DNA from: Candidatus Omnitrophota bacterium
Lineage (GTDB): Bacteria; Omnitrophota; Gorgyraeia; Zapsychrales; JANLHA01
Reading direction: 5' to 3'
DNA length: 64,000 nucleotides
Assembly: GCA_038222225.1 (NCBI GenBank)
Contig: JBBRHV010000003.1
Span: 10,331 to 74,330 of the forward strand
The notes under the pieces: generated by a model
What the model saw: only the letters and a program-made list of their open reading frames with translations
What the model was told of the DNA's origin: nothing
Database searches by the model: none
In this document: piece by piece, positions 396 through 41,609 of the stretch
Layout: each line of letters starts with the position of its first letter
Numbering within the stretch: the first letter of the stretch is position 1
Translations under genes and position numbers: made by a program

Positions 396-557
396 TCACT
401 ATCAAAACAAGAACTTCCTCAATCTCTGCCCAGAAGTTCAGCAAGACATCATCCTCGGTGATGAAGAAAACTTTCGCGATATCCCCGAATACAAAAGCCG
501 CCCCATCCTTCAGTTGTTCGATCCAAATACTCAGCTCTCCCGATGGAAAAAGATGAC

Positions 558-873
558 GTTCATTTACTAAGTGGCAATTCTGAGAGGACTGATCCATATT
601 GGGCCATAAATGGGACCTTCGAGAGGCATGAGCTTTTTGAATTATCCACAGCTAAGGCATAAACCACAAAACAACGCCCCAATCATGCCCTAACCGTTTG
701 CAACCAACGCGGGCATCCCTCCTTCGGAGGTCGATGCTGCGTAATCATCTAAACCCTGCAAAAAACAGCAGCGTTTAGATACGCAAACCGCATCAAAGAG
801 ATCCCTGACTGCGTTTGGCAATCAGGGATCTTTTTGATTCTAAGAGTCGCTTCCGACACTGTTATACTGGTAG
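558..873 (+). repeat. Repeat R1, a diverged copy of R2/R3: CATTTACTA site, an sRNA-like structured segment (about 650-835) and a terminator hairpin, ending ...CCGACACTGTTATACTGGTAG.
   Basis: Alignable by eye to 33616..33963 and 36711..37142; shared 3' block GATCCCTGACTGCGTTTGGCAATCAGGGATCTTTTTGATTCTAAGAGTCG. Confidence 0.7.
800..835 (+). terminator. Rho-independent terminator hairpin GATCCCTGA-N13-TCAGGGATC followed by TTTTT. Present in all three R copies (also 33890-33922 and 37063-37107).
   Basis: Perfect 9-bp stem plus T-run read directly from the sequence. Confidence 0.6.
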
Positions 874-3246: not shown

Positions 3247-4576
3247 TGGAAGTATGTTCTCGTATTATTCTTTTAATATTCTTTTGAATTTCCCTTACAA
3301 CCGTTGCTGGAATTCCGGCAATTGCTAAAGCGCCTGCTGAAGATGTATTTGACATTAGATCGGTTTGCATTTTCAGCATTCTCATCGCCTTTCTCCAAGC
3401 ACTATCTTCCACATGACGCTCCTCCTTACGATGCTTTTTTATGGTCGCAGAATAAAGCGCAAGCGCCTTATCAACACAAAGCGGTACGGAATAATTGTCA
3501 GCTGTTTTTTTAGAATTTTTAATCATAACTGCTCGGTCATGTAGAGATAATGCTGCCATCCAATCCAAGCAGGCAGAAAATTCCTTGATATTGTCTTTTT
3601 TGATCATTCTTCCATTTTGTTTGTCTATCAATATATCCCTGACTCCTGGCGCGTCAACCGCCACCACAGGCGTTCCCGCAGCCATCGCCTCTGCTAAAAC
3701 TAATCCCTGCGTTTCACTATGCGATGCAAATACAAAAACATCCAAAGCATCATACGCATTGATAAGCTGTTTTCCTTTTAATGAACCAGTACAGACCAGT
3801 CGATCGGCAAATTTCATTTTTTCAAAACTTTCTTTTATATCCTCCAGCGAAGGACCATTTCCAACAACAACAAAATATGCTTTTTTATTTTTCTTTAAAA
3901 AAGAAATCACTGCTTTGGATAAAAAAACTACATTTTTCTCCGGTGCGATTCGGCCTATGATGCCAACCACAAATGCATCGTTTGGAATACTAAAATATTT
4001 ACGAAATGTTTTACCGTCTCCTTTTTTAAATTCATCAACATAAATACCCGTAGGTACCACATCGATTGGTGCTATTACGCCTCTTTCTTTAAGAAGATCA
4101 GCTACACTTTTACTGGGAGCAATGACCTGATCACACAAATCCGCATAACCTTTTGCAAGCGCGATAACAAATTTTTTCATAGCCCTTGAATCGCCAGGTA
4201 AATAATGCGTGTTTTCTTCATAAATCGTATGATTCGTAAAAACAATTGGTACATTGAACTTTGCTGATGCTCTTAAGGCCGTGTCGCCAACTAAAAAAGG
4301 ATGATGTGTATGAATAATATCCGGTTTAAATTTTTTCAACGTTTGATTCAATTTTTGCGACATTGGCAATTCAACTGAAAAATCTGTATGATTAAACTTT
4401 TGAATCGCAGGAAGGCGAAAAACACCCCTTTCCCTCTTAGAATCTTTCTCGAATTCTGGAGCAATAATTAAAACCTTATGTCCACGTTTGCGATATTCAT
4501 TAGAAAAGACCTCAATCGATATCTCTAAACCCCCAAGAATAGGTTTATACGTATTGGTCATCATGATAATATTCAT
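3233..4576 (-). CDS. Glycosyltransferase family 4 (GT-B, group 1).
   Basis: GIIGRIAPEKN and E-x7-E region ETQGLVLAEAMAAGTPVV typical of GT4. Confidence 0.85.
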   Translation of the reverse strand: MNIIMMTNTYKPILGGLEISIEVFSNEYRKRGHKVLIIAPEFEKDSKRERGVFRLPAIQKFNHTDFSVELPMSQKLNQTLKKFKPDIIHTHHPFLVGDTALRASAKFNVPIVFTNHTIYEENTHYLPGDSRAMKKFVIALAKGYADLCDQVIAPSKSVADLLKERGVIAPIDVVPTGIYVDEFKKGDGKTFRKYFSIPNDAFVVGIIGRIAPEKNVVFLSKAVISFLKKNKKAYFVVVGNGPSLEDIKESFEKMKFADRLVCTGSLKGKQLINAYDALDVFVFASHSETQGLVLAEAMAAGTPVVAVDAPGVRDILIDKQNGRMIKKDNIKEFSACLDWMAALSLHDRAVMIKNSKKTADNYSVPLCVDKALALYSATIKKHRKEERHVEDSAWRKAMRMLKMQTDLMSNTSSAGALAIAGIPATVVREIQKNIKRIIREHTSNDKK

Positions 4577-17065: not shown

Positions 17066-17674
17066 TCAAGAAAGAAACAATTGTACCTGGGTATCATCCG
17101 CCACCTTCGGCGCCAACACATGGCACATATATAACCGCGCCCGATGAAGCAGGACATAAAGATTTTCAACACTGATATTTAAGATCTCGCATATCTCTGC
17201 AACGTCCATCTGTTCTATTTCCCGAAGGTAAAAAGCCTCTGCGACCGCCTCCGGTAATTCCTGCAGACAATCAAAGAAGGCCGGCCAGAATTTCTTTGTT
17301 TGAGCTTCTTTGCCCGGATCAAGCTCATGGATGCCCAACAAATTCCTGTGTCGGCCTTGTTGATCAAAAAAACTGTTGCTAGCTGCCTCATTTTCCCGAA
17401 CATCTTTGAATGGTTTTTTCTGAAAGACCTTGCGGAAATGATCCCGGATCTTAGCCTCCAGCATATCCGTCAGCCAAACCCCTTCATCTGACAATCCTCC
17501 GAAACGGCGCTTTGTATCTGCCGCAGATAAAAGTGTCTCTTGCACAAGGGTTTCTGCCTGTGCGGAATATTTCACCCGCCTTAAGGCAAGCGTGTAAAGT
17601 TGTTGGCCATACTGATCCACCCACAGATCAGTATCAATAGTCCCCGAACTCTTTTCCTTCAGCACGTGTACCAT
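17066..17674 (-). CDS. ECF-type sigma-70 family sigma factor (alternative upstream start at 17743).
   Basis: Region 2 (LYTLALRRVKYSAQAETLVQETLL) and region 4 (LPEAVAEAFYLREIEQMDVAEICEILNISVENLYVLLHRAR). Confidence 0.75.
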   Translation of the reverse strand: MVHVLKEKSSGTIDTDLWVDQYGQQLYTLALRRVKYSAQAETLVQETLLSAADTKRRFGGLSDEGVWLTDMLEAKIRDHFRKVFQKKPFKDVRENEAASNSFFDQQGRHRNLLGIHELDPGKEAQTKKFWPAFFDCLQELPEAVAEAFYLREIEQMDVAEICEILNISVENLYVLLHRARLYMCHVLAPKVADDTQVQLFLS

Positions 17675-17857
17675 GGCAACCCTCTCATCTTTTTTACCCC
17701 TGAAAAAAGAAACACGCCTTCTGCTCACAGGCTTTAGCTTCACACCTGTTGAGCATTGTAGGCTTTATCAAAAAAAGGACAATTGTACCAGGGTATAACT
17801 GATGAATGAACAGATGCGGACGAAAAAACTCTTTATCACGATGGAAAAAATTTTTAA

Positions 17858-20650: not shown

Positions 20651-20951
20651 AGCTCTTATTGCACCTCATGAAAAGGCAACCGTATGCCGACACATTGCCA
20701 GACAGTTCGGCTCCCTTTATTTGTTTTTATTGTAGGCCTTATCGTAAACAGGGGCAATTGCACCAGGGTATAACTCAAACCCTGGAACGTTCGGAAGAAA
20801 AAAAACCGCTGTTTTAGAAAAGGGTGTCCCTGCTTGAATGAGACAAGCCATGCCTTTTGGCGAAGATGTTTTGAATGGTATTCTTTGAAAAAAATTTCAC
20901 GTCATATGATCGCTCAAGTTTTCTCTCGCGCTTTTTCTGAATCTGCCGTAC

Positions 20952-22288: not shown

Positions 22289-22528
22289 TTCTTCGTCTCC
22301 TTCGTGTTTAACAGTTCTTTTTAATTTAAAAATGTCTTCAGCTCAATGCCCTTCATCATCTTCGTTTCTATAATATAAATTTGCCTATCAATTAGACGGA
22401 ATTGAACCTGACCCCTTACTGATCTTATTTTAAACCGCGTTTAAAAGAGTTCAATTATACCAAAGTATCATTGGTGAAGTGGACTGTTCGGGAGAAAAAA
22501 AGGAAAGCTGTTTTGGAAAAAACTATGC

Positions 22529-25632: not shown

Positions 25633-25757
25633 ATGGCAATTCCTTTGTAATAATGCCCGGCCATGACAGAACCGGATTAATAGGACTTTCTATTCAGTCG
25701 AATCTCTCGGTTAGCGACTTACAATATAAAGGTGTCGCCTTTATTGACCTTTATTGA

Positions 25758-25866
25758 TTAAGGCAACCTCTAATAATTCCATTTACAGTCAAAATGAATG
25801 GCTCTTTATCGACGATAGCGGAATCAGTAAATGACTCAAAAATAGCATTTTTAGAGGTTGCCTTAA
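25758..25866. repeat. 109-bp element bounded by a 16-bp inverted repeat (TTAAGGCAACCTCTAA ... TTAGAGGTTGCCTTAA), orientation A. Inverton or MITE-like.
   Basis: Same element at 26245..26353 with identical direct flanks (CACCTTTATTGA ... GTATTGTGTC) but the inner 77 bp reverse-complemented. Confidence 0.75.
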
Positions 25867-25883
25867 GTATTGTGTCCCCAGAA

Positions 25884-26153
25884 TTACAGGGATCCTCTTC
25901 TCTTTGGTTTCTTCTCTACACTTTTCTTAGGGGCCATTTTGCCCCGATTACGAATAATCAAACCGTCTAAAAATCGTCTTAACAGCTGATCGCCGCAAGG
26001 CCTATAATTTTCCTGATCGTCTTTACGAAAAATAGCGGAGAGCTCCGAAGGAGAAACTTCTAATTCAGCGAGTTTAAGGATTTCAATAATATCCGTGTCT
26101 CTTAAATGCAAAGCGATACGAAGCTTTTTCATAATGTCGTTATTGTTAATCAT
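25884..26153 (-). CDS. DUF1456 (YehS-like) protein.
   Basis: NDIMKKLRIALHLRDTDIIEILKLAELEVS...QLLRRFLDGLIIRNRG pattern. Confidence 0.7.
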   Translation of the reverse strand: MINNNDIMKKLRIALHLRDTDIIEILKLAELEVSPSELSAIFRKDDQENYRPCGDQLLRRFLDGLIIRNRGKMAPKKSVEKKPKRRGSL

Positions 26154-26244
26154 CCTTGATCCCTCCTGTGATCCTAACAATTAAGCCATTTCTATCCAAG
26201 CCAATAATAAAGGTGTCAATCACCTTTCTTGTCACCTTTATTGA

Positions 26245-26353
26245 TTAAGGCAACCTCTAAAAATGCTATTTTTGGGTCATTTACTGATTCCGTTATCGTC
26301 GATAAAGAGTCATTCATTTTGACTGTAAATGGAATTATTAGAGGTAGCCTTAA
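26245..26353. repeat. Second copy of the IR-bounded 109-bp element, orientation B (interior inverted relative to copy 1).
   Basis: See 25758..25866. Confidence 0.75.
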
Positions 26354-26381
26354 GTATTGTGTCTCCAGAGTTTTTTTATTT

Positions 26382-29856: not shown

Positions 29857-30182
29857 TTGAAGGCTCCTTTCATTTTTCCTTACATCCTTACTTAAAGGAT
29901 ACCCTACAAGTAACCAACCGTCAACCCTTTTTAAATCCTGAAAGATCTCACAACACTCTTTCAAACATCCTCTCTAATCACAATCAGAAAGCTGCTTAAC
30001 GCAGAAATTTCATCAATATCAACATGCCACTCATTTGTGTGGATGTCAAGATTCTTCTGTTTCCTTTTATTTTCACCACCAAAACCATCACCAAAATCTC
30101 TAAAAAACATAACGCACCTTGATTAACATCGATATGGCTTGAAAAAATGAAGAAAGGGAAGGCAAAAGCCTTCCCTTTTATC

Positions 30183-30213
30183 TGGTAGCCCCAACTAGAT
30201 TTGAACTAACAAC
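30183..30213 (-). repeat. att-like remnant: copy of the 3' about 30 nt of tRNA-Glu (27/31 identical to the reverse complement of 37323-37353).
   Basis: tggtagccccaactagatttgaactaacaac versus tggtagccccaaccggatttgaaccggtgtt. Confidence 0.65.
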
Positions 30214-30449
30214 ACTTTTAGGTCAAAACTATCGAAAAAACATCAAAATTGTGCAGTTTTTTGCCGACTTTCATCATGCTGATAATTCCATCCCTAAATC
30301 CACTACTAAAAACTTCTATCAACGAAATCCCAAATTCAGAGAACCCTTTATCGACTGGCACGATCCATTCCAGTCGATACCATTAAACATTTCAATCAAA
30401 GACCACAAAATGAAGCAGCTTCCTTGAAGCTCCTTTCCCCATCTCCTTA

Positions 30450-31856
30450 TCAAAACTTCTTTCGCTTCTTAAGATGCTTTACCATCTGAACCATATCTTC
30501 CTTATACATAGACTTCAATTGCTCCCACTTTTCATGAGCAAGATCATAGTCGGGATAAAACATCAAGGCCTTTTCAAAACATTTTTCAGCCTTGCGTTTT
30601 TGAAGCAGAAAAACATAACAAACACCCATATTATGCCAAACCACGTGATTATCATCCCATAGCTTTGAATAATGCTGATAAAATTCCAGGGCCTTTTGAT
30701 ATTGCCCTTCTTTCATGCATCGGGCCGCATCATCAAAAAGTTTTTCAACCTTCTGCTTATCATCTGTGTAAATTCTGTTTATCTGAAAGTCATATCCGAA
30801 TTCTTCCTGGGGATTGCCCATCGCTTTGCGTTCCTCCATAATAACTTCTCTGGGCGTCTTTCCGTTAAGTTCTTCAAGAGGAGCAACAAACCATTCATCG
30901 CTCCACCGCTGAATCTTTTCAACAAACTCTTCCTGTTCTTTGGCAGACATTATCTTCATTGGATACAAAAACGTTTTCTCCATTGCGTCCGTACAAGCGC
31001 TCACCAATGTTTTTTCCAAAGGGCCTTTTTCCATACCCTGATGAAGTTCTCCCACAAACTGATTCCAGACATCGTTAAAAGCCTCGCCGAATTCCTCAAC
31101 ACTGACCCACTCCGGAAGCGTCATGCCGCTCAGCACACTTTGCATTATATCCGCCAGATGCTTTTTATCCTTGATCGCCATTCTCATTTCAAGAAAGATA
31201 TCCTCAGCATCGTCATCCGACAAGCCGCCTTCTTTACAAAGCAGAATGAATTTTTTTTCAACAGATAGCTGTTCCGGAACACGCTCTGGAAACAACGCTT
31301 TATACATCTCAAATGCATCCTGTCGATCATGCGATTCAGACGAGTTTTTTAAAAACAAGCCGATGATATCGTACTCCTGTTTCGGAAAAAACAGGCCATC
31401 CGATGCCATTATAAAATAGTTATCAAACGGCAATAATCTTCCGATAATATAATCGCCTTTCCCGGCAGCTCTGCTTCCTCTGGTGTCAAAAATATGATAT
31501 TCCTCCAATGAAATCACATCTTCGCACACAAACTCTTTACCGATCTTTACTGCCTTAACTTTATAAATCCCGAAGCGGTCCTGCCCAATCCGGGAATATA
31601 TTTCATAAAGCTCCCGGGAGATTTTGCCCCTCTCCTCATCCAGGAAAACATCAAAAAGCCTTTTATGATATTTCTCCAATTGGTGATCAAAAATAAACCA
31701 GTCGAAAAACAGCCGGCCGATATTCTGATCGGTAAATGACAAACGGATAAAATCTTTCTGCCGTTCAAACACCTCTTTTTCTATCGCGGAATGACATCGA
31801 ACAAAATCATTGATCGCATCATACATTTTTTTAATAAGGTCTTTATATTCTTTCAT
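30450..31856 (-). CDS. Hypothetical protein with C-terminal TPR repeats; N-terminal about 330 aa unrecognised.
   Basis: C-terminal KALEFYQHYSKL...GVCYVFLLQKRKAEKCFEKALMFYPDYDLAHEKWEQL TPR-like. Confidence 0.5.
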   Translation of the reverse strand: MKEYKDLIKKMYDAINDFVRCHSAIEKEVFERQKDFIRLSFTDQNIGRLFFDWFIFDHQLEKYHKRLFDVFLDEERGKISRELYEIYSRIGQDRFGIYKVKAVKIGKEFVCEDVISLEEYHIFDTRGSRAAGKGDYIIGRLLPFDNYFIMASDGLFFPKQEYDIIGLFLKNSSESHDRQDAFEMYKALFPERVPEQLSVEKKFILLCKEGGLSDDDAEDIFLEMRMAIKDKKHLADIMQSVLSGMTLPEWVSVEEFGEAFNDVWNQFVGELHQGMEKGPLEKTLVSACTDAMEKTFLYPMKIMSAKEQEEFVEKIQRWSDEWFVAPLEELNGKTPREVIMEERKAMGNPQEEFGYDFQINRIYTDDKQKVEKLFDDAARCMKEGQYQKALEFYQHYSKLWDDNHVVWHNMGVCYVFLLQKRKAEKCFEKALMFYPDYDLAHEKWEQLKSMYKEDMVQMVKHLKKRKKF

Positions 31857-32083
31857 TGTGTCAATTTTTGTAGAAACCCCTGATCAATAAATCATTAATA
31901 AATCGTGACCATGTTTTGCTGAAGTTTTCTGCAAGTATAAATTCCACCAAGCCGTCAAAGTTTTTTTCTTTTAGATGCCATAAAATTATTCTGTTTCATA
32001 AAAAATTTTGAATGCCAATTTAAAATTTTTATACAAATAATAGCCTTTTGGAAATGCATAAGTCTATGGTATTCTTACAGTAT

Positions 32084-32263
32084 GAAAGAAACATCCCTCT
32101 TTGAATCAAATCCTTATTTAAAAAATCAGGCTGTACGAAACCGGATGTTTTTAACTGCCGTGAATACCTCGACTGCTATTGAAGGTGTTCATGTCGATAT
32201 CTCATCTCCAAAAAAGCGTTCACGCCAAAACACATCCATATCTAGGAAGATGCTGAAGTAGCC
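32084..32263 (+). pseudogene. Fic-family N-terminal fragment (inhibitory-helix region TSTAIEGVHVDIS), 59 aa.
   Basis: Hand translation MKETSLFESNPYLKNQAVRNRMFLTAVNTSTAIEGVHVDISSPKK... parallels the N-terminus of the intact Fic at 35362..36378. Confidence 0.55.
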
Positions 32264-32490
32264 TTCTTGATTGTCCTTCTGATAACACTCAAAAACATCC
32301 TCTGCATGGGAACATAGTCTCTTCTAAGACCAGATTGTACCGCTGCGATATATTCGGCCTTTTTTCTGCCTTGAATACCGCCAAAATCCAAGGCCGGCAG
32401 CCCTGCCTGAAGAGCCATGATGATAGAAAGAAGTCGCGCAATTCGGCCGTTACCTTCCCGAAACGGATGGATCAGAGACCAATAAAAATA
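32236..32490 (-). pseudogene. Fic-family C-terminal fragment starting at the catalytic motif (YFYWSLIHPFREGNGRIARLL...). No start codon; in frame directly after the HEPN stop codon.
   Basis: HPFxEGNGR Fic motif read by hand. Convergent with the N-terminal fragment on the opposite strand. Confidence 0.7.
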
Positions 32491-32895
32491 TCAAGATAGC
32501 TTGTTCTTCACAAATTCAAAAAACCGCTCACAATCTTTAAACATCTTCTCTGCCTCGTTTTTGCAAACAAGGCGCTCCTCATACTCAGCCATATTTTTCA
32601 TCCGCAAAATCCTCACGATACGGTTGGCGTTTGTCGTGAACTCTTCGGTGTTTTTGATCATTTTAAACAGGACGACCGCCTGATTATGGTCTTCGCCGGC
32701 GCTTCTTTTCCCCAAAAAATAAACGCACATGGCGTCACAGGCGGATATCGTGCAGTGTATCGCATTAATAGCAACAGCATTCCACTGTTGTCCTTGCAAG
32801 GCTTTCTGCGATGCATTAAAACACTCTTGTGCTTTCTGCATAAAATTCGTATACGCTGCGCGCTGAACATCCCGTGTTTTCGGCTTTGCTATCAT
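32491..32895 (-). CDS. HEPN-domain protein (toxin partner of MNT).
   Basis: R-x4-6-H motif (KRSAGEDH); genetic pairing with the MNT gene. Confidence 0.7.
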   Translation of the reverse strand: MIAKPKTRDVQRAAYTNFMQKAQECFNASQKALQGQQWNAVAINAIHCTISACDAMCVYFLGKRSAGEDHNQAVVLFKMIKNTEEFTTNANRIVRILRMKNMAEYEERLVCKNEAEKMFKDCERFFEFVKNKLS

Positions 32896-32907
32896 AACAT
32901 CATCCTC

Positions 32908-33504
32908 CTAGGGGAATAATTGTATTCCTTTTTCGATTTCCTCCAAAAGCTTCAGATCCTTCTTCTGCTGAAACTGTTTTTCCGTCAGAACATACGCAGC
33001 CAATCTGTTGCCAAATTTTTCTAGGCATGTAATAGACAGTCCCTCAAGCGATTCCTCCAGAGACTTTAAACTTTCCTTATTTTGGGTCAAAACAAAAAGA
33101 TCAATATCGCTGTCTGTTTTTTCATCATGACTGGAAACAGATCCGAACAAAACGACTTTAATCAGGCTTTTCTTGGGTAGTCTGCTTAAAATGGTCGTTT
33201 TTAAGGCCACAATCGGCTGTGGCTGCGTGTCAACGATCCCTTTGACAGTATTCAACACATCATAAGCGTAACTCTGAGGATTGACTTTCCAGACATGGGC
33301 CCGCCCTACTCTTTCATAGGAAACAAAATGCCACTGCTCCAGATAGCGCATAACCCGGTTAACCGTCATGTGCGAAATTCCCACCAGAGACGAAATCTCT
33401 CTCTCACTCATGGCGGACTCATGGTTAATCAAAAACCGGACAACCTTGAGTTTCGCCTCAGTATCGATCAATTGAAAAAACGAATCATGAAACTTCATAC
33501 GCAT
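32908..33504 (-). CDS. Minimal nucleotidyltransferase (MNT) with N-terminal winged HTH (antitoxin partner of HEPN).
   Basis: LFGSVSSHDEKTDSDIDLFVL (GS...DxD) motif; wHTH at the N-terminus. Confidence 0.75.
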   Translation of the reverse strand: MRMKFHDSFFQLIDTEAKLKVVRFLINHESAMSEREISSLVGISHMTVNRVMRYLEQWHFVSYERVGRAHVWKVNPQSYAYDVLNTVKGIVDTQPQPIVALKTTILSRLPKKSLIKVVLFGSVSSHDEKTDSDIDLFVLTQNKESLKSLEESLEGLSITCLEKFGNRLAAYVLTEKQFQQKKDLKLLEEIEKGIQLFP

Positions 33505-33506
33505 TC

Positions 33507-33552
33507 CTTTGTAACTTTCATGTTACAAATGTAACATAAATGTTACATAAAA
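33507..33552. promoter_or_regulatory. Operator-like 18-bp perfect palindrome ATGTTACAAATGTAACAT plus an extra TGTTACAT half-site, immediately upstream of the MNT start.
   Basis: Palindrome read directly; the downstream gene encodes a wHTH protein. The TGTAACAT half-site also occurs at about 36645. Confidence 0.5.
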
Positions 33553-33615
33553 TCAATGATTTTATATCGAAATATCAACGGCACCATACGACGCAAAAAC
33601 TCTTTAAACTTCATC

Positions 33616-33963
33616 TTCATTTACTAGAGAGTGGTTGCCCAATTATGGCTAAATCCTAGTAAATGGCTTTTTGGCCATTTTCCCAAAATGCCGATTGCGA
33701 CTATTTTGATTTATTGTCATTTACTAGGGGCCATTTACTAAGTGCCACTTCTGATAGAAATGGCTAGTATCAGACCCAATTTGGCTGTCGCGAGTACTAT
33801 CAATTTTTCCAAATGTAAGCATCCAGCGCCGAAACTACAAAACACCATCCCACTTGCGCCCTAACCCTTTGACACGTCAAGACATGAACGATCCCTGACT
33901 GCGTTTGGCAATCAGGGATCTTTGTGATTCTGAGAGTCGTTTCCGACACTGTTATACTGGTAG
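33616..33963 (+). repeat. Repeat R2 (CATTTACTAG sites x4 in direct/inverted orientation, terminator hairpin, ends ...TTATACTGGTAG); lacks the central sRNA-like segment.
   Basis: Alignable to R3 36711..37142 and R1 558..873. Confidence 0.75.
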
Positions 33964-33999: not shown

Positions 34000-35263
34000 T
34001 GATCTTCCCCACTTTAGTGGACAGTTTGTTTAGTTAGGACGGCTCGATTTTCAAACTCAAAAGGACTTAAATAATTGAGCGTTGAATGACTCCGTCTACG
34101 ATTATAATACATCTCTACATATTCAAAGATTTTTCTTCTTGCTTCTTCCCTAGTTCGAAATCGGTACTTGTGAACAAGCTCGACTTTTAACGTGTGGAAG
34201 AAGCTCTCAGCGACGGCATTATCCCAGCAGTCACCTTTTCGGCTCATACTGCCGATAAGCTTATGTTCAGCCAATATCGCCTTGAAATCATTCCCTGCGT
34301 ACTGACTGCCGCGATCTGAGTGACAGATCAATCCTTTATCCGGATTCCGCCTTAGGATCGCCTGTTGCATAGCCCTGGTGGTTAGTGTCGCGGCAATGGT
34401 TTTATCCATGGCCAAACCAACAATCCCCCGCGAAAAAAGATCCAGCACCATCGCCACATATAACCACCCTTGAGAAGTCCAAATATACGTTATATCGAAT
34501 ACCCAGACGGCATTGGGCTTCTCGACCACAAAGTTCCGATTCAAAACATTCGGCCATACCGGATAATCATGCTTCGAGTTCGTCGTTAACCGAAACTTAC
34601 GCTTCTGGACAGCGACGATTCTGGCTTCTCGCATGACCTTCGCCACACGGTTCTCCGAACAACGGATATGTTTGACGTTGTTCAACTGGTCCCAGATTCG
34701 TGGACTGCCGTAATTCTCTTTGTTCTCCACAAACACACATTTTATCTCAATGAGCAATGCTTCATTCTTGATGCGGCCCTGGCTCTTGGGCCGATTTTTG
34801 TATGCGTAATACCCGCTCCTCGACACTTCCAAGGCCCGGCACATCTTCCCGAGCGGAAAGACCAAACGGTTATCGTCTATGAATCCGAACCGTTCTCGGT
34901 CGATTTTGAAAATATGCCGACTGCTTTTTTTAGGATGTCACGCTCCATTTCAACATCACGTAACTGACGCCGTAACGCCGCCAACTCTGTCAAATGACCC
35001 TTGCCGGGAAAAGCCTTCTCTCCCTCATCGCCAAACTGCTTCTTCCAGAGATACAGCCGCCCCGGGTCGATTCCAAGGCTCCTGGCCACCTCTGCGGCCT
35101 TGTGCCCGCCCTCTGTGACCATCTTGACCGCTGACATCTTGAACTCCCGGTCAAACCGCTTCTTCTTCCCGTTTTCTCCTGCCATTGGACACCTCCCGTT
35201 TTTGAGCCGGCTATCATATTAAAACCAACTCTTCGTTGTGTCCACTTTTTCGGGGGAAGATCA
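34000..35263 (-). mobile_element. IS3-family insertion sequence (orfA 34877..35185, orfB 34014..about 34930, A7 -1 frameshift site near 34920; terminal IRs TGATCTTCCCC...).
   Basis: OrfA HTH protein; OrfB rve/DDE integrase core; slippery CTAAAAAAAGC; about 25-bp imperfect terminal inverted repeats at 34000 and 35263. Confidence 0.85.
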
Positions 35264-35361: not shown

Positions 35362-36378
35362 TTATTGCTTTTCCACATATTCAGCCATATCCTGCACCCG
35401 AACATGCCAAGTCTTCCCTCTTTTGACACCCTTTAATTTTCCCCGATTAATTAAATTGCGAAGATAATCTGAAGAGTAATTATAGATTCTTGCCAAATCA
35501 CTCAGCGGCAACTCAGCCTCTTTATTAGTGTGACGAATATCTACTTCCTTAAGGCGTCCTACGGCATCATCCAACCGTCCTATAACAATTTCTTTTATCT
35601 TATCAAAATCCTCCAGACGAATGCATTCATCTACATCATTAACATCAAACTTTTTCCCTTGCTCTATTTTGCGATGAATTAATTCAAAAACATCATCTGC
35701 CTTCTCTAGGGCATCATAATAATACTCACGATCCTTTTTAGAAATACCTTTGATCGCTATATTCATCAACCCACATCCAATGAGAATATACGATAATAAA
35801 ATCCTCCCAGTGCGCCCATTCCCATCAGAAAAAGGATGGATCGATTCAAACCAAACATGTGCTATCGCCGTTAGTTCAATATGATTATATTTCTCTTTTT
35901 TTAGATGATAATTAATCCATTTAACCAATAATTCCGTCGCTGGACGCACATAAAATTCACTAATAGGCGTAAACGTAGATTCTGTAACCTCTGCCCTGCC
36001 CTTACGAAATCCCCCTAAATCTCCGATATAAAATCCCATTTCCTTTTCATAACGCATCAAAAGAGTGTGGATCTGTTTAACATCAGACATACGCACTGAA
36101 AATTCTTCTTCCTTGTGTTGATTTGCCGCATATTCATACATCGCAGATGCTGCTTCAAAATAACCTAGAATAGATGCCGCCTTATGCTTATCCGTTCTTT
36201 TATTATTTTCAAGAATATCAATCAAATCTTTACGATTAGCAAATACTCCTTCAATCGCAATGGAGTTGCGAATCTCATCCTTAAACAAAGAATACCATTC
36301 GGCATTAGAAACGCTGATCAAATGATCCTTTGTTTCTTTTAACTTGTTGAACTCTTTTAAAATAGCTGATAATTTCAT
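35362..36378 (-). CDS. fic: Fic-family protein (intact; HPFSDGNGRTGR motif) with a C-terminal HTH-like region.
   Basis: Fic motif, N-terminal SIAIEGV inhibitory-helix-like motif, 338 aa. Confidence 0.85.
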   Translation of the reverse strand: MKLSAILKEFNKLKETKDHLISVSNAEWYSLFKDEIRNSIAIEGVFANRKDLIDILENNKRTDKHKAASILGYFEAASAMYEYAANQHKEEEFSVRMSDVKQIHTLLMRYEKEMGFYIGDLGGFRKGRAEVTESTFTPISEFYVRPATELLVKWINYHLKKEKYNHIELTAIAHVWFESIHPFSDGNGRTGRILLSYILIGCGLMNIAIKGISKKDREYYYDALEKADDVFELIHRKIEQGKKFDVNDVDECIRLEDFDKIKEIVIGRLDDAVGRLKEVDIRHTNKEAELPLSDLARIYNYSSDYLRNLINRGKLKGVKRGKTWHVRVQDMAEYVEKQ

Positions 36379-36445
36379 GACATATTCCTAAGTAGTGTTA
36401 AATATCAAAATCTATCGAACCACATGTGCTTATTAAAACCAACAA

Positions 36446-36602
36446 GACTTGCGAACCTTTTCTTATGGTTCGATAATAATATATCATATTTATGTGTGAA
36501 ATAAAGCTATTTCTAGTATTTTACCGAACCTTCCGAACCACATCCAATTCTTATTTTTACCCTCAAACTATCGAACCTTTGCGCATGGTTCGGTAAAAGC
36601 CT
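36446..36602. promoter_or_regulatory. Two palindromic CGAACC-N9-10-GGTTCG sites (36446-36470, 36577-36602) plus CGAACC half-sites upstream of fic; putative operators.
   Basis: gcgaaccttttcttatggttcga and atcgaacctttgcgcatggttcgg read directly. Confidence 0.45.
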
Positions 36603-36710: not shown

Positions 36711-37142
36711 TTCATTTACTAGAGAATTTTCGCCATATTCAGGCACAATCCTAGTAAATGAAATTCTGGCTATTCCACCCCAATAGGCATTTTCAAACAT
36801 TTTGATAAATAAGCATTTACTAGGAGCCATTTACTAAAGGCCGATTTTGATAGAAATGGCTAGTATCAGACCCAATTTGGCTGCCGCGAGTACTATCAAT
36901 TTTTCCAAACGTGATCATCCTGCGCCGAAACTACAAAACATCATCCCCATTACGCCCTAACCATTTGCAACGTCAACACAGGCATTACCCCCTTCGGGGG
37001 TTGATGCTGCGCAATCATCTAAACTCTGCAAAAAAACACCAGAGTTTAGATACGCAAACCGCATCAAAAATCCCTGACCGCGTTTGGCAATCAGGGATCT
37101 TTTTGATTCTAAGAGTCGTTTCCGACACTATTATACTGGTAG
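36711..37142 (+). repeat. Repeat R3 (full-length: CATTTACTAG site cluster + sRNA-like structured segment about 36930-37095 + terminator), directly abutting a tRNA-Glu 3'-end copy at 37137.
   Basis: See R1/R2; ends with ...ttatactggtagccccaa. Confidence 0.75.
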
Positions 37143-37148
37143 CCCCAA
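37137..37148 (-). repeat. 12-nt copy of the tRNA-Glu 3' terminus (TGGGGCTACCA+).
   Basis: tggtagccccaa identical to 37323-37334. Confidence 0.4.
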
Positions 37149-37269
37149 GCCGTGGCCCTCTGGCCACTGGCACTTCCTCGCCAGGCTCGGTCGGCCCAGC
37201 CGGGGACGGCCGGCACTTCCTCGGACATTACGTCCTCGGTCGCCGGATTGTATTTTCGCTTCAAAGGGC

Positions 37270-37322
37270 TGAAGCTCTCAAAATAAATCGGGCACGACCT
37301 TTCGGGTCGCGCCCGCTTATTT
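37270..37322. terminator. GC-rich hairpin (CGGGCACGACC-TTTC-GGGTCGCGCCCG) flanked by T/A runs; bidirectional terminator just 3' of tRNA-Glu.
   Basis: Read from the sequence. Confidence 0.5.
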
Positions 37323-37399
37323 TGGTAGCCCCAACCGGATTTGAACCGGTGTTTGATGGCTGAGAACCATCCGTCCTGACCAGGCTAGACGATGGGGCC
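37323..37399 (-). tRNA. tRNA-Glu (anticodon CUC), CCA encoded.
   Basis: Hand-folded cloverleaf: acceptor GGCCCCA/TGGGGCT, anticodon arm GATGG-TTCTCAG-CCATC, T-arm ACCGG-TTCAAAT-CCGGT, D-region TCGTCTAG...AGGAC as in bacterial tRNA-Glu. Confidence 0.85.
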
Positions 37400-37599
37400 A
37401 AATCTCACAACATTTATATTAACAAGCGGGATGAAACATTTCCCGCCAAATCTCTCTTTTCTTCGCCCAATGGTTTCGCTAGTACTCAACCACTCCCTCG
37501 GACATTTTGTCCTCGGTCGCCGGATTTTCACCGGGTTTCGCTCCCTTCGGAGCGCGGAATGGTTTCTCTCCCACTCAAAACGGAAGAAACCATTGGATG

Positions 37600-37703
37600 G
37601 CTGAGCAATGAGGCTTACCTCAAAATCTTTTAGCCAAAGCCTCATTCCCGGCCAACTTGATTGGCCGGCACCATCCGTCCTGACCAGGCTAGACGATGGG
37701 GCC
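37600..37703 (-). repeat. Partial copy of the tRNA-Glu 5' half (positions 1 to about 33, 37668..37703), then a 64-nt hairpin-rich insertion, then the anticodon/3'-stem sequence CTCAGCCATCC. Not a complete tRNA.
   Basis: ccatccgtcctgaccaggctagacgatggggcc identical to 37367-37399; downstream sequence lacks a proper T-arm and acceptor 3' strand. Confidence 0.6.
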
Positions 37704-37986
37704 AAAATTTTTAAACCCATAAAATTGAAATACTTGGAAATACATAGAAAGACGGGGAAATAAAAAAGCTTCCCCCCCCACCGTCCATGGCGCATCCTTC
37801 AATTTCAAGCGCATATCACTCGTATTTCAATCCACTTCTATCATTTTCCACTAGGGATAAATCTTACCACATTTCCCTTATTGGTCAATAAAAATATCCC
37901 GCTGCATTTTTAAGGAAAAGCACCTCCCATAAGACTATTTTTATGATATATTCTTTATAATTAGGAAAATTATCGAGGACCTCAGC

Positions 37987-39177
37987 ATGGCTTTATCCGT
38001 AGGGATCGGTTTTAACAAAGAAAAAAATACAAATCTGGCCGCCGCGGCAGCGATCGAACAGGCCAAACGCAATATCCATGTCGGCCGGATCGACCTCATT
38101 CTGGTTCTGGCAACGCCTCATTATTCCCCTCAAAATATCATTACGGAGATCGGAGACCAGCTGGATTCCCCCCGGGTCATCGGCTGCTCAACGGAAGGGA
38201 TCATCCTTGATAACACGATCCACCGGCGCGGCATTGCCATTGCCCTTTTTCATTCCAATGAGATGAAGTTTGTGACCGGCAGCACTCAACATCTGAACCT
38301 GCAAAACGCCAATCAAGCCGCCGAATCCCTGGTCCAATCCTGCAAATCCGAATACGGACAGAGCGAACGCCAGCTTTTCTTTATTCTGACGGAAGGCGCA
38401 CCAAATAGCATTCCGGATTTTCAGCACCATCTGCGGCGGAACCTTCAGGAAGACCCGGACATCCCCATTATCGGCGCCTGCTGCACAAGCATCCTCGCGC
38501 CCGAGAGCTCCTTTCTTTTTTATAATAACGAAACCATCAAAAAATCCGCGGCCGTCTTTATGGTCGGCGGAAAAGTCAAGGTCAAAATGGCCTGCCGCCA
38601 GGGCTGGCATCCGATCGGACGCCCCCGCTTTATCGATAAAAGTAGCGGCCATATCATTCATGTGATTGACGGACGGCCGGCCATTGAACTCTATCAGACC
38701 TTTTTTCCCGATCAATGCCGTTTTTTAAAAAATCCGTCTTCGTCACTCAACATCTACTATCCGCTGGGTATTGCCAGCGGGAAACGCGGGGTCTTCTTTC
38801 TCCGAAATGTTGTAGATGTTCTTGACGACGGCAGTATCGTCTGTAATGATAATGTCGAGGCTGGCTCACAAATCCACATCATGCTCGGCAACCGGGATTC
38901 CTGCCTGCAGGTCACGAGGAACGCCATCAACGAACTGAAAGGCTTCTTTTCGGATCAGCCTTCGGGCGCGGCGCTCATGATCGCCTCAGAACGGCATGAC
39001 CGGATCCTGGGACGGGCCTTTGAGCGGGAGTTGAACTATTTCAAACGAACGATCGGCGAAGCGATCCCTATCATCGGGTTCGTCAGCCACGGGGAGATCT
39101 TTGATGTGGGAGAACCGCATCAGCAATCTCCGAACTCAAAACAAAACAACAGCTTAATGGTCATCGGTATAAAATAA
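37987..39177 (+). CDS. FIST-domain sensory protein (FIST_N + FIST_C).
   Basis: GRIDLILVLATPHY...PRVIGCSTEGII and C-terminal IIGFVSHGEI patterns. Confidence 0.7.
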   Translation: MALSVGIGFNKEKNTNLAAAAAIEQAKRNIHVGRIDLILVLATPHYSPQNIITEIGDQLDSPRVIGCSTEGIILDNTIHRRGIAIALFHSNEMKFVTGSTQHLNLQNANQAAESLVQSCKSEYGQSERQLFFILTEGAPNSIPDFQHHLRRNLQEDPDIPIIGACCTSILAPESSFLFYNNETIKKSAAVFMVGGKVKVKMACRQGWHPIGRPRFIDKSSGHIIHVIDGRPAIELYQTFFPDQCRFLKNPSSSLNIYYPLGIASGKRGVFFLRNVVDVLDDGSIVCNDNVEAGSQIHIMLGNRDSCLQVTRNAINELKGFFSDQPSGAALMIASERHDRILGRAFERELNYFKRTIGEAIPIIGFVSHGEIFDVGEPHQQSPNSKQNNSLMVIGIK

Positions 39178-39185
39178 AATCACGC

Positions 39186-40664
39186 ATGTTCTGGGCTATC
39201 TTCATAACAAGTCTGTTCCTTTTGATTTCGATCGGCGCCTTCACCGCGCTCTACCAGAAACGTAAGATTCAGAATCTTTCCGCGTCCCTGCAGAAATTTA
39301 AGGAATCCTTTGATGAAATCGACGAGCAGGCCAAACTGATCATCAAGACCGATCTGGAGCTCAACCGCACACAGGAAGAGTTGGATAAACGCCTCAAAGG
39401 GCTCGACGCCCTGCAGGCCATCTCCCGCCTGGTCAGCACCAGTCTGGATGAACGCGAAATTTTTGAACTGCTGGGAGAGCCGCTGGTCTCCGACATGGGG
39501 CTTGAACAGTATTTCTTTCTGATCCTGAACAATCAGGGATCGCTCAACTGCGCCGCTCATTTAGGCGCCTCCGAAGAAGAGTCCAAACGCATCCTGGCCT
39601 TTATCGGAAATAATCTCACGCTGGTCGATCAACTCAAAAACCGCCAAGCCATCTCTTCGATCAACGCCACCGATGACGAACGCGCCTTCTTTTTAAAACA
39701 TTTGAAAACCCGCCATTTTATCATTACGCCGATCATGGCCAAAAATACAATGCTCGGCATCCTGCTGGCGACCAGCCATTCGACAACCTATGCCGTCACC
39801 GAGGGCGACGAGGAAATCGCCTCGATCCTCTCCGATCAGATCGGCCAGGCGATCCAAAACGCCCGTCTGTTTGAAGAGGTCTTTCATTCGCGCCAAAAGC
39901 TCGAACTGATGGTCCAGGAACGCACCCGTCAGCTTCAGGAAGCGCTCTCCAACGTTCAGCAGGTCAGCAAAATGAAATCTGAATTTATTTCCGCCGTCTC
40001 CCATGAGCTGCGCACCCCTTTAACGTCGATTAAAGGATACGCCTCCCTGTTGAGTTCCGGGAAGCTGGGAAACATCCCGGATGCCGTCCGTGAGCGCCTG
40101 GAAAAGATCAATCACCATTCCGACAGCCTGGTTCAGCTGATCAACAACCTTCTGGATATTTCCCGCATTGAGTCAGGGAAGACCGGCATGAAGCGCCAGC
40201 GCTCATCCATCGCCTCCATCATCGACAATGTTCAGGACCTGCTGGCTCCGCAGCTCAAAGAAAAAAATGTCCGTCTGGTCCTTAAAGTTCCGCCGGAGAC
40301 CCCCCAGCTCCTGGTCGATCAGAGCCAGATCGAACGGGTCTTTATCAACCTGGTCGGCAACGCCGTCAAATTCACTCCGTCTGAAGGAACGATCACGGTT
40401 ACGGCAGAACCCAGAGAGAGCGATGTTCTTTTTTCGGTGGCCGATACCGGCATCGGCTTAAAGGAAGACGACCGCCGGAAATTATTTAATGAATTCTACC
40501 GTGTTGATAATGATATCAATCAAAGCATGAAAGGCTCCGGCCTTGGCCTTTCGCTGGCGAAAAAGATCATCGAAGCCCATAACGGCCAGATCTGGGTCGA
40601 TAGTATTTACACAAAGGGATCCACCTTCTCATTCACGATCCCGCATCAGGATGATCAAACATAA
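39186..40664 (+). CDS. Sensor histidine kinase (1 TM, coiled coil, GAF-like, HisKA, HATPase_c).
   Basis: SHELRTPLTSIKGY H-box; N-, G1- and G2-like boxes (DTGIGL, GSGLGLSLAKKI). Confidence 0.9.
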   Translation: MFWAIFITSLFLLISIGAFTALYQKRKIQNLSASLQKFKESFDEIDEQAKLIIKTDLELNRTQEELDKRLKGLDALQAISRLVSTSLDEREIFELLGEPLVSDMGLEQYFFLILNNQGSLNCAAHLGASEEESKRILAFIGNNLTLVDQLKNRQAISSINATDDERAFFLKHLKTRHFIITPIMAKNTMLGILLATSHSTTYAVTEGDEEIASILSDQIGQAIQNARLFEEVFHSRQKLELMVQERTRQLQEALSNVQQVSKMKSEFISAVSHELRTPLTSIKGYASLLSSGKLGNIPDAVRERLEKINHHSDSLVQLINNLLDISRIESGKTGMKRQRSSIASIIDNVQDLLAPQLKEKNVRLVLKVPPETPQLLVDQSQIERVFINLVGNAVKFTPSEGTITVTAEPRESDVLFSVADTGIGLKEDDRRKLFNEFYRVDNDINQSMKGSGLGLSLAKKIIEAHNGQIWVDSIYTKGSTFSFTIPHQDDQT

Positions 40665-40676
40665 AAGGAGTTTTGC

Positions 40677-41609
40677 ATGCCGAGAGCGCGCATTTTAACG
40701 ATTGATGATGACCCGGATATCCTCGATGTCCTGGATTTGACCTTGTCGGAACACTACGATGTCCTTCAGGCCCCCAACGGCCAGGAAGGGCTGATCATCC
40801 TGCAGAACAAAACCCCGAACCTGGTCGTCTGCGACTACATGATGCCGGTCATGAACGGCAAGGAATTCTGCAAAGCCGTCAAAAAGGATGTGCTCCTGCG
40901 CAATATTCCGATCATCATGCTGACCGGCAAAGGCGAAGTCCATGACATGATCGGCGGGATCGAGGCCGGCGCCGATGACTATATCGTCAAGCCTTTTGAG
41001 CCCGAAGCCCTGCTGGCCAGGATCCACATGATCCTGCGCCGAACCGAACAGAGCCTGGACGCCAACCCGCTGACCCATCTTCCGGGCAACACCTCGATCA
41101 CCGAAAAACTTCAGGAATGCATCGACAGCAAGTCGGCCTTTGCCGTCGGGTATGCCGATCTTGACAAATTCAAAATTTATAACGACAAATACGGTTTTGA
41201 AAAGGGAGATGAGATCATCCGGGAAACGGCGCGCGTCATTGTCAAGAATGTCCGCACCATTGCCGGCGAAGACGCTTTTATCGGGCATATCGGCGGAGAC
41301 GATTTTGTTTTTATCACGAACGACAGCATCATTGATGATGTCTGCCGGGGCGTCATTAAGGAATTCGACGCCAACAGCCCGGGCTTCTACACTGAGGAAG
41401 ACCGCCTGGCGAAATATATTGTCGGGAAAGACCGCCTCGGAAATGAAACCCGCGCCGGCCTGCTCTCGATCTCGATTGGGATCGTCAGCAACGCGCATGC
41501 CGAGATCGCCCATATCGCGCAAGTCAGCGAAATCGGGGCAGACCTCAAAAAATATGCCAAGACCTTTGATACCAGTGTTTTTGTGAGAGATAAACGGCGG
41601 GCACTATAA
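40677..41609 (+). CDS. Response regulator: REC + degenerate GGDEF domain (GGDDF).
   Basis: RILTIDDDPDILDVL...VVCDYMMP REC; LDKFKIYNDKYGFEKGDEII ... HIGGDDFVFIT. Confidence 0.85.
   Translation: MPRARILTIDDDPDILDVLDLTLSEHYDVLQAPNGQEGLIILQNKTPNLVVCDYMMPVMNGKEFCKAVKKDVLLRNIPIIMLTGKGEVHDMIGGIEAGADDYIVKPFEPEALLARIHMILRRTEQSLDANPLTHLPGNTSITEKLQECIDSKSAFAVGYADLDKFKIYNDKYGFEKGDEIIRETARVIVKNVRTIAGEDAFIGHIGGDDFVFITNDSIIDDVCRGVIKEFDANSPGFYTEEDRLAKYIVGKDRLGNETRAGLLSISIGIVSNAHAEIAHIAQVSEIGADLKKYAKTFDTSVFVRDKRRAL

Follow-up and report, generated by a model that had tools for sequence, protein, structure and literature searches.

Probable att-proximal non-coding tails of small serine-recombinase elements at tRNA-Glu(CTC): a reading of a structured segment in a Candidatus Omnitrophota contig

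A structured segment was analysed in a stretch of 64,000 nucleotides (nt; 64 kb, hereafter the window) from contig JBBRHV010000003.1 of a Candidatus Omnitrophota bacterium (assembly GCA_038222225.1, positions 10,331 to 74,330 of the forward strand; coordinates below are window positions). The segment, at 650-835, lies inside the first of three direct repeats and had been taken, in an earlier reading made from the sequence only (the sequence-only reading), for an expressed and structured small RNA (sRNA) of the plus strand. Comparison with related loci (numbered L001 to L018) very probably places it in the tail of a serine-recombinase element at tRNA-Glu. The more specific reading, to which an even chance is given, is that 650-835 is the non-coding tail proximal to the attachment site (att) of small elements of a large serine recombinase (LSR) inserting at the 3' end of tRNA-Glu(CTC), and not a free-standing sRNA gene. 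By comparison between loci, an intact element carries its LSR gene on the window's plus strand and oriented toward the tRNA gene, with the LSR stop codon in or shortly before the first CATTTACTAG box and about 330-430 nt of non-coding repeat (R) behind it; R leads into the hairpin, a conserved stretch of about 38 nt comes after it, and the element closes with 21-24 nt copied from the tRNA 3' end.

The three direct repeats of the window (R1, R2 and R3; Table 1) were located by a repeat search and by direct reading of the sequence. Their existence had been recognized correctly by the sequence-only reading and their size underestimated, the repeats being larger than the portions described there. 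The segment said to be shared by R1 and R3 was borne out, since 650-835 and 36930-37107 align at about 79% (154 of 194 columns), and the right part (705-873 against 36974-37142) reaches 90% aligned identity. The statement that R2 lacks the central segment and keeps the terminator also held, exactly 82-83 nt being absent from it (709-790 in R1 and 36979-37061 in R3). All three repeats terminate at TGGTAG, the reverse complement of the tRNA-Glu(CTC) 3' end CTACCA, and R3 continues with CCCCAA to form TGGTAGCCCCAA (37137-37148), a 12-nt copy of that 3' end. Copies of GTTCAAATCCGGTTGGGGCTACCA, 24 nt or shorter, were found at the window junctions 30183-30206 and 37137-37148 (12 nt) and at junctions in L001, L005, L013, L014, L015 and L017, so that direct repeats of the target 3' end stand at the element boundaries.

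Twelve distinct R copies are known (3 long and 9 short, L003b being identical to L001b), most of those outside the window having been reached through homologues of the Fic, MNT and LSR proteins and the contigs of these homologues. The GCCCTAACC-GTTTGCAAC box to the left of the insert forms invariant columns in a 7-copy alignment and was also found in L013, L015, L017 and L018. The att-proximal 38 nt (GATTCTAAGAGTCGCTTCCGACACTGTTATACTGGTAG) are 82-95% identical between copies (90-95% except in L001a) and adjoin an intact tRNA-Glu gene in L001, L002 and L018. Up to four CATTTACTAG boxes were observed per R, one of them inverted and two in tandem with 7-nt spacing; in the window they fall within 561-571, 33619-33745 and 36714-36845, and they also occur in the R copies of L001, L013, L015, L017 and L018. 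These boxes look like putative protein-binding sites and are retained in every cassette, although large serine recombinases should not need arm sites. The recombinase stop codon sits in the first CATTTACTAG box in L013b, L017, R1 and L001a.

The link with the recombinase is given by a coding remnant at the left end of R1, whose stop codon falls inside the first CATTTACTAA box. When the L013 recombinase was searched against the window by tblastn, 400-567 of the plus strand was matched at 57% identity (E = 4e-17), and the 56 residues of the remnant align to the extreme C-terminus of homologues of 516-517 amino acids (aa), the best being P0181 (71%, E = 7e-26); several full-length homologues are named as coming from metagenome-assembled genomes of Candidatus Omnitrophota. 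In L013, the LSR (Resolvase, Recombinase and Zn_ribbon_recom domains) reads in the direction of the window's plus strand into an R copy, with its stop codon within the first CATTTACTAG box. The order in L017 is LSR, R and 24-nt tRNA end, and that in L018 is a DUF2924 protein, an intact LSR, a 74-aa open reading frame (ORF), R, an intact tRNA-Glu and then FIST, HisKA and GGDEF, the genes beyond tRNA-Glu being the same neighbours as at window 37987-41609. Because LSR genes read into R in L013, L017 and L018 and a remnant stands at 400-570, the segment lies in the 3' flank of a recombinase gene; a tail placed between the recombinase stop and the att core was found in L013b, L017 and L018, and with the remnant in R1. 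The family members lie at L018:4001-6269, L017:2250-4157 and L013:5076-6980, besides the remnant at window 400-570. This family (516-517 aa) adjoins the tRNA-Glu(CTC) 3' end or its 24-nt repeats, and a DUF2924 gene is upstream in L017 and L018.

Recombinase-less cassettes carry the same tail. On the tRNA strand of L001, the order is an intact tRNA-Glu, a short R starting at the CCA end, Fic, a GGGGCTACCA junction, a long R, and MNT with HEPN; beyond these two cassettes, 21 nt of displaced tRNA 3' end are followed by a terminator of the native type. L015 and L013 hold cassettes of the same types, arranged in different orders. Since att-like tRNA-end copies bound the cassettes and their orders vary, these are small cassettes stacked by accretion, with R as the tRNA-proximal tail. 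Judged from gene order, R2 and R3 are the heads of such recombinase-less cassettes (MNT-HEPN and Fic, respectively), which have kept only the tail and accreted downstream of the tRNA gene. The host genomes are distant, the neighbouring FIST protein showing 33-34% amino-acid identity between the window and L001, L015 and L018, whereas the cassettes and R are 78-95% identical, which indicates that the elements move horizontally. The hosts are distantly related uncultured bacteria, probably Omnitrophota-like.

The hairpin GATCCCTGA...TCAGGGATC near the right end of the segment is likely a terminator acting on the tRNA strand, that is, the minus strand of the window, where it has the make-up of an intrinsic (Rho-independent) terminator. 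It is 100% paired in a 10-copy alignment, and two of the ten pairs are compensatory (U-A to C-G and C-G to G-C). When each strand was folded separately, the minus-strand hairpin was the more stable in all 12 distinct copies (-16.7 to -21.3 kcal/mol on the minus strand and -8.5 to -17.6 kcal/mol on the plus strand; -19.1 versus -16.5 kcal/mol in R1). The tRNA-strand stem has 12 pairs in every copy, continuous with a 5-nt loop in nine and divided into 8 + 4 with a 4-nt loop in L013a, L015a and L015b; it is longer and more stable because the G·U pairs on that strand are C·A mismatches on the plus strand, where the stem of R1 has 8-9 bp and is followed by TTTTT (831-835). L017 and L018 are natural intermediates (CCCCGA with TCAGGG or TCGAGG), fully paired only on the tRNA strand, and their plus-strand stems, broken by C·A, have -11.9 and -8.5 kcal/mol, respectively. 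At least 5 T were counted in the 8 nt after the tRNA-strand stem in 10 of the 12 copies. On the plus strand, 4-6 T of 8 follow the stem in 10 of 12 (the CCCTGA subfamily, L018 and L015) and only 2 of 8 in L013a and L017. Where R adjoins an intact tRNA-Glu gene (L001 and L018), the hairpin stands about 37 nt beyond the CCA end. The minus-strand stability in 12 of 12 copies, the U-run and the compensatory pairs together suggest that the hairpin is foremost an element-supplied tRNA terminator.

The perfect terminator hairpin claimed earlier was found with its 9-bp GATCCCTGA/TCAGGGATC stem in R1 and R2, whereas R3, whose 5' arm reads AATCCCTGA, forms only 8 bp. The plus-strand T-run after the hairpin was seen in all three window copies, and a simple terminator scan did not call the plus-strand hairpin. 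Plausibly, the hairpin is a bidirectional terminator only in the subfamily to which the window copies belong. In R of the CCCCGA type, the motif C(T/C)CCGTCG(A/G)G was observed three times (L013:3500-3600; L015:2540-2610 and 4200-4300); one copy is the 3' arm of the terminator hairpin, and the motif may be a protein-binding repeat.

According to the proposed mechanism, integration would separate the tRNA gene from its own terminator, and the hairpin brought in by the element, some 37 nt beyond CCA, would substitute for it. The hairpin would then be selected as a minus-strand RNA structure, with a 12-bp stem formed through G·U pairs and followed by U6. In this subfamily, the pair of A-tract and T-run would make the hairpin bidirectional, and plus-strand transcripts from the recombinase or R would be halted before running antisense into the tRNA gene. 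The two-hairpin insert (H1 and H2) would be an optional addition just inside the terminator; if transcribed, it would form the last part of a plus-strand trailer (H1-H2-terminator), most plausibly as a 3'-end stabiliser or an RNA derived from a 3' untranslated region (3'-UTR).

The insert was found only in R1, R3 and L001b, three of the 12 distinct copies, and is absent with the same boundaries from the nine others, including every more divergent R and all the LSR-adjacent ones, which makes insertion into one R lineage the parsimonious direction. It stands directly upstream of the plus-strand T-run and just past the tRNA-strand U-run. CAT (791-793) directly follows it, and close to its left end GCAT (713-716) contains another CAT. 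Identity among the three long copies is 87-88% in the insert and 43-52% in the left flanks.

The description of the insert as containing a UUCG-tetraloop hairpin was mistaken: H1 has, in R1, a 5-bp stem with a UUC triloop (CCTCC-TTC-GGAGG, 718-730), the misreading having arisen because one G was counted twice, and a cUUCGg register is impossible in R1. The corresponding sequence is CCCCC-TTC-GGGGG in R3, and the loop in L001b is UUUC. The double substitution reported for this hairpin is real (U720-A728 in R1 versus C-G in R3), and this one base pair, in H1, is the whole of the compensatory evidence inside the insert. The second hairpin, TCTAAAC...GTTTAGA, is present as described and is not cleanly preserved, since the U-A pair of R3 and L001b is replaced by a C·C mismatch in R1; in addition, the apical C-G pair of H2 is lost in R3, and its outer GCGUA/UACGC stem has plus-strand C·A mismatches in R3 and L001b. 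Uncompensated stem changes in further copies, which had been named beforehand as evidence against an expressed RNA, were thus seen in L001b as well as between R1 and R3. With RNAalifold, the three copies gave similar consensus folds on both strands, and the covariation term, computed from only three distinct copies, was +2.0 (plus) and +1.6 (minus) kcal/mol, positive values being a penalty. In R3 and L001b the plus strand gives the more stable H1, and in all three copies the minus strand gives the more stable H2; the comparison of G·U with C·A between strands, which was decisive for the terminator hairpin, is therefore mixed for the insert.

Because the plus-strand T-run comes right after the insert and transcripts of the tRNA strand end shortly before reaching it, we read it, tentatively, as a part that may act as plus-strand RNA and be transcribed only as the last part of plus-strand trailers. 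If this optional two-hairpin block were expressed, it would be an uncatalogued mobile-element RNA motif. It is improbable that H1-H2-terminator is a processed 3'-trailer RNA of the LSR element, kept in recombinase-less toxin or defence cassettes (Fic, HEPN-MNT) for a role in excision or cargo expression; if true, this would be a new mobile-element RNA in an integron-like cassette array built by a serine recombinase at tRNA-Glu.

The same distribution bears on the alternative that the insert is inert or selfish DNA, such as a miniature hairpin element or a captured palindrome, copied along with the att-proximal module, its hairpins reflecting its origin. Presence in 3 of 12 copies only, with same-boundary absence from L013a, L015a, L015b, L017 and L018, favours an insertion of this kind, as do the CAT repeat at its ends, the uncompensated stem changes, the lack of a strand preference and the conservation of the loops to the same degree as the stems; with distant hosts, the 87-88% identity can come from recent spread. 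This alternative is nevertheless considered unlikely, since nhmmer, run on the 64-kb window and some 90 kb of related loci, returned no other copy of the insert, its ends bear only the 3-nt CAT and no terminal inverted repeats, the window encodes no cognate transposase (of IS200/IS605 or another family that handles hairpins), and the insert has been retained in three R lineages with differing left flanks. In the window and these loci the block occurs only inside R copies, and it does not have the character of a miniature inverted-repeat transposable element, an IS200/IS605-derived hairpin element or a repetitive extragenic palindrome.

An independent plus-strand sRNA gene of about 130-190 nt, with its own promoter in R and ending at the hairpin and T5, was judged clearly improbable. 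Structure prediction agreed with the sequence-only reading, in that the plus-strand fold beats dinucleotide shuffles (z = -8.3 in R1 and -6.1 in R3), and three consecutive stem-loops end in a hairpin and T-run; one compensatory pair and the plus-strand stability of H1 through G·U pairs in R3 and L001b also speak for such a gene. The minus-strand fold, too, beats dinucleotide shuffles (z = -8.1 in R1 and -5.3 in R3). Against the gene stand the hairpin selected on the opposite strand, the plus-strand C·A mismatches in H2 and in the outer stems, and the unrelated left flanks of the long copies (43-52%), which imply that these have no common promoter region. A sigma-70 scan gave no plus-strand promoter-like site in or just upstream of the segment, and no Rfam family was assigned, mobile-element RNAs such as IS605 omega-RNA/HEARO, c4 and STAXI included: at the gathering threshold the window gave only its two tRNAs, and at E <= 10 the best match on 500-950 scored 23 bits against a threshold of 54, the remainder being microRNA noise. 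A sigma-54 promoter (-24/-12) was sought by eye at the CCCTAACC-TTTGCA box and did not match. On the minus strand, transcription from the site ATAACA-17-TAGAAT (865-837) would begin at the hairpin itself. What stands of the structured plus-strand RNA is therefore that the segment is non-coding, strongly structured and conserved; its free-standing character is given up in view of the minus-strand hairpin and the recombinase 3' flank.

Coding and other RNA or element classes were also tried. A plus-strand ORF of 27-40 aa ending at the CCCTAA box was rejected, as it occurs only in closely related left flanks, shows no synonymous bias and is absent from L001b, L013a and L015. A 14-aa tRNA-strand ORF (MRFAYLNAAVFCRV), right after the U-run in R1 and L001b, was rejected because it is frameshifted in R3; the small ORFs overlapping the insert are not conserved. 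An integron attC site was rejected, as no GTTRRRY/RYYYAAC pair flanking the hairpins was seen by inspection and there is no tyrosine recombinase in the window. An IS110 bridge RNA, an IS605 omega-RNA, a retron non-coding RNA and an origin of transfer or single-strand origin (oriT/sso) were likewise rejected, with no associated gene in the window and no Rfam match.

It is also possible to regard the insert as a DNA-level accessory site near attP, folded or bent, for the recombinase, a directionality factor or circle replication. Its place, with the conserved boxes on one side, the att-proximal module on the other and the crossover site about 45-125 nt away, would suit such a site, and both strands fold about equally, with substitutions favouring neither. 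Short forms, including all the LSR-adjacent ones, evidently integrate without the insert, however, and large serine recombinases require only att sites of about 50 bp, without arm sites; this alternative is held to be highly improbable. Least probable of all is a minus-strand RNA that serves as a back-up roadblock or processing structure for tRNA read-through toward the cargo genes: Fic, MNT-HEPN and the tRNA gene share the minus strand, which also gives the more stable fold for H2 and for the region as a whole, and the tRNA-strand U-run is eroded in R1, but a strong terminator right in front of the insert should let little transcription through, no U-run comes after either hairpin on that strand, H1 is weaker on the minus strand and the same cargo types are served by short forms.

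Several observations weigh against the account of the segment as an att-proximal tail with a terminator and an optional transcribed insert. We infer that the LSR is the integrase of these cassettes, and adjacency is the sole basis for this. The tRNA-strand U-run is eroded in R1 and R2 (T of 8: 4 in R1, TCTCTTTG; 3 in R2, CGTTCATG; 5 in R3, TTTTTGAT), and no window copy now follows an intact tRNA gene; the eroded runs fit copies no longer behind a live tRNA gene. Plus-strand termination is not family-wide, as L017 has no T-run and an imperfect stem on that strand. For the insert, the asymmetry of wobble pairs and energy is mixed (H1 favours plus and H2 minus), and its identity between copies is not proof of purifying selection because horizontal spread is recent. 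The insert is dispensable for an autonomous element because the LSR-adjacent copies L013b, L017 and L018 are all short. Lastly, a sigma-70 scan, to which this search was confined, gave no plus-strand sigma-70-like promoter in the R1 region (300-1400), and the sole such site for R3 lies about 500 nt upstream (36449-36477), at chance frequency.

Table 1. Positions of the repeats, their parts, the recombinase remnant and the tRNA-Glu site in the window
Feature	Position	Strand	Remarks
R1, long form	560-873 (start ~560)		whole terminal repeat of the cassette family, from CATTTACTAA box to TGGTAG
R2, short form	33616-33963		no insert; hairpin 33891-33919; upstream of MNT/HEPN cargo
R3, long form	36711-37142		insert 36979-37061; hairpin 37070-37098; plus-strand T-run 37100-37104
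Box GCCCTAACC-GTTTGCAAC	687-704		in long and short R copies, directly left of the insert
Optional insert	709-790		82 nt (82-83 across copies); hairpins H1 and H2
H1	713-737		GCATC-CCTCC-TTC-GGAGG-TC-GATGC
H2	739-784		GCGTA-ATCA-TCTAAAC...GTTTAGA-TACGC
Putative terminator hairpin GATCCCTGA...TCAGGGATC	800-830	minus	12-bp stem, 5-nt loop, then TCTCTTTG
Att-proximal 38 nt (GATTCTAAGAGTCGCTTCCGACACTGTTATACTGGTAG)	836-873		conserved; ends at the crossover region
LSR C-terminal remnant	400-570	plus	last 56 codons and stop TAA 568-570
tRNA-Glu(CTC), integration target	37323-37399	minus	native-type terminator at 37289-37315, minus
Fic/DOC protein, R3-cassette cargo	35362-36378	minus	C-terminal HTH_17 domain (Pfam)
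R2-cassette cargo	32491-33504	minus	MNT nucleotidyltransferase 32908-33504, HEPN 32491-32895 (Pfam)
attR-like 24-nt copy of tRNA 3' end	30183-30206		2 mismatches; conserved far-end arm of the MNT-HEPN cassette to its right

On the minus strand of the window, each repeat is followed by its cargo, R3 by Fic and R2 by MNT and HEPN (Table 1), and R1 precedes only 21 codons of a Fic gene. A Fic homologue of 85% identity stands behind the R copy beside tRNA-Glu in L001, and MNT/HEPN cassettes with R copies were also found in L001, L013, L014 and L015. The Fic fragment in front of R1 (335-398) has 64 nt with 89% identity to the start of the Fic gene (36314-36377) and begins near the stop of a plus-strand ORF (2-346; no Pfam match) that enters from the window start. 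Since the end of this ORF, the Fic N-terminus and the recombinase C-terminus are all fragments, R1 lies within a mosaic of incomplete genes. Operator-like palindromes CGAACC-N(8-10)-GGTTCG and related half-sites were observed upstream of the Fic gene (36430-36600), and TGTAACAtaaATGTTACAaaTGTAACA, also operator-like, lies upstream of the MNT gene (33510-33550); these palindromes are cargo-specific, and both are conserved in L001, L013 and L015.

The far-end arm at 30183 sets the span of the MNT-HEPN cassette at 30183-33963. The tRNA-end copy there is preceded by the hairpin AAAGGGAAGGC-aaaa-GCCTTCCCTTT (window 30143-30206), a tRNA-strand terminator directly after CCA, and 30143-30206 looks like a displaced native tRNA end that marks the far boundary of the cassette. 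A single R-headed cassette at 874-30182 was rejected, as the MNT-HEPN cassette ends at 30183. The Fic unit is separated from the MNT-HEPN unit by an IS3-family insertion sequence (about 34001-35263, minus strand; orfA 34877-35185 and orfB 34014-34865) with the terminal inverted repeats TGATCTTCCCCAC...GTGGAC; its insertion point has the R2 junction on one side and, on the other, the distal end of the Fic cassette. No integrase gene was found in the window.

The live tRNA gene is separated from the 12-nt core of R3 by 174 nt that resemble native downstream sequence and include a terminator (37289-37315), so that the island does not abut the live tRNA gene in the window. The content of guanine and cytosine is 37-47% to the left of tRNA-Glu and about 50% to its right. 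A copy of the tRNA 5' half (88%) was observed at 37657-37706 and a 36-nt repeat at 37214-37249 and 37491-37526, and extra partial tRNA ends occur in L005 (864-1031) and L015 (2270-2432). The rearrangement history of the tRNA-Glu site is complicated.

Pattern searches outside these loci added one copy. The exact 20-mer of the hairpin had no match in the genome and metagenome collections, a degenerate hairpin pattern had a single match in the metagenomes (the short-form copy L005), and the four matches of a central-block pattern in genomes (L006-L009) were rejected as chance matches of 21-23 nt. Two patterns gave no match in viral contigs, blastn of 560-880 against plasmid and phage collections matched nothing, and look-ups of the window's own Fic and histidine-kinase proteins returned no entry on record.

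Two other repeat families were observed in the window. A 30-nt motif (AAAAAAGGACAATTGTACCAGGGTATAACT and variants) occurs at 17069-17098, 17771-17800, 20746-20775 and 22443-22472, three of the four copies being just upstream of minus-strand genes (for a response regulator, an extracytoplasmic-function-type sigma factor and a PAS-GGDEF-HD protein), and may be a shared promoter or operator. A pair of repeats of about 40 nt, 487 nt apart (25747-25885 and 26234-26372), lies between hemerythrin and radical-SAM genes; part of each sequence is the reverse complement of the other (repeat families D11 and D13).

With regard to known systems, an element-borne replacement terminator for a disrupted tRNA gene is a known design principle of tRNA-targeting elements, and bidirectional intrinsic terminators between convergent genes consist of a GC-rich hairpin between an A-tract and a T-tract. 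The hairpin described here, between the tRNA gene (minus) and the recombinase or R (plus), resembles the latter, but its two directions are unequal, as G·U lengthens the tRNA-strand stem only and some family members lack the plus-strand T-run. A hairpin and T-run beside an island boundary thus need to be read on both strands. sRNAs derived from 3'-UTRs, such as CpxQ and SroC in enterobacteria, share the terminator of the mRNA; the insert is similar in having stem-loops directly upstream of the terminator of a protein-coding transcript, but of the upstream gene R1 retains a pseudogene fragment and R3 nothing.

The islands at ssrA in Dehalococcoides, which have a CcrB-like serine recombinase beside att, 20-bp repeats of the transfer-messenger RNA (tmRNA) end, tandem arrays and integrase-less members (PMC3146451), are similar in the recombinase at the element end by att, in the repeats of about 20 nt from the 3' end of a tRNA-like gene at the boundaries, in the tandem stacking and in the integrase-less members, interpreted there as cis-mobilizable. 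They differ in that tmRNA is their target, in place of tRNA-Glu(CTC) here, and in being far larger than the present elements, which measure about 2-4 kb; the partner gene here encodes a DUF2924 protein and not DsiA/ParB/RecF, and every cassette keeps a conserved non-coding tail of about 350-430 nt that carries CATTTACTAG boxes and the terminator hairpin. Decayed, integrase-less cis-mobilizable elements (CIMEs) that keep att sites accumulate beside tRNA genes by repeated site-specific integration (PMC5704250), and 27 of 937 elements in a study of tycheposons carry a large serine recombinase (bioRxiv 10.1101/2020.12.28.424599). As in those arrays, the present island is dotted with incomplete tRNA copies and pieces of recombinase genes, whereas those arrays mostly use tyrosine recombinases, and neither a conserved structured tail nor an optional hairpin insert is described for CIMEs or tycheposons in these two sources. 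Serine recombinases were long held not to target tRNA genes (PMC4383910), and the documented cases at tRNA-type genes are few, namely the tmRNA islands of Dehalococcoides and a minority of the integrase-carrying elements of the tycheposon study. The present family is a somewhat unusual member of already described elements, its element-borne terminator and trailer being ordinary in kind, and the more interesting lead is the combination of very small serine-recombinase elements with recombinase-less toxin/defence cassettes (Fic and HEPN-MNT) that share one tail of about 350-430 nt and stack at tRNA-Glu.

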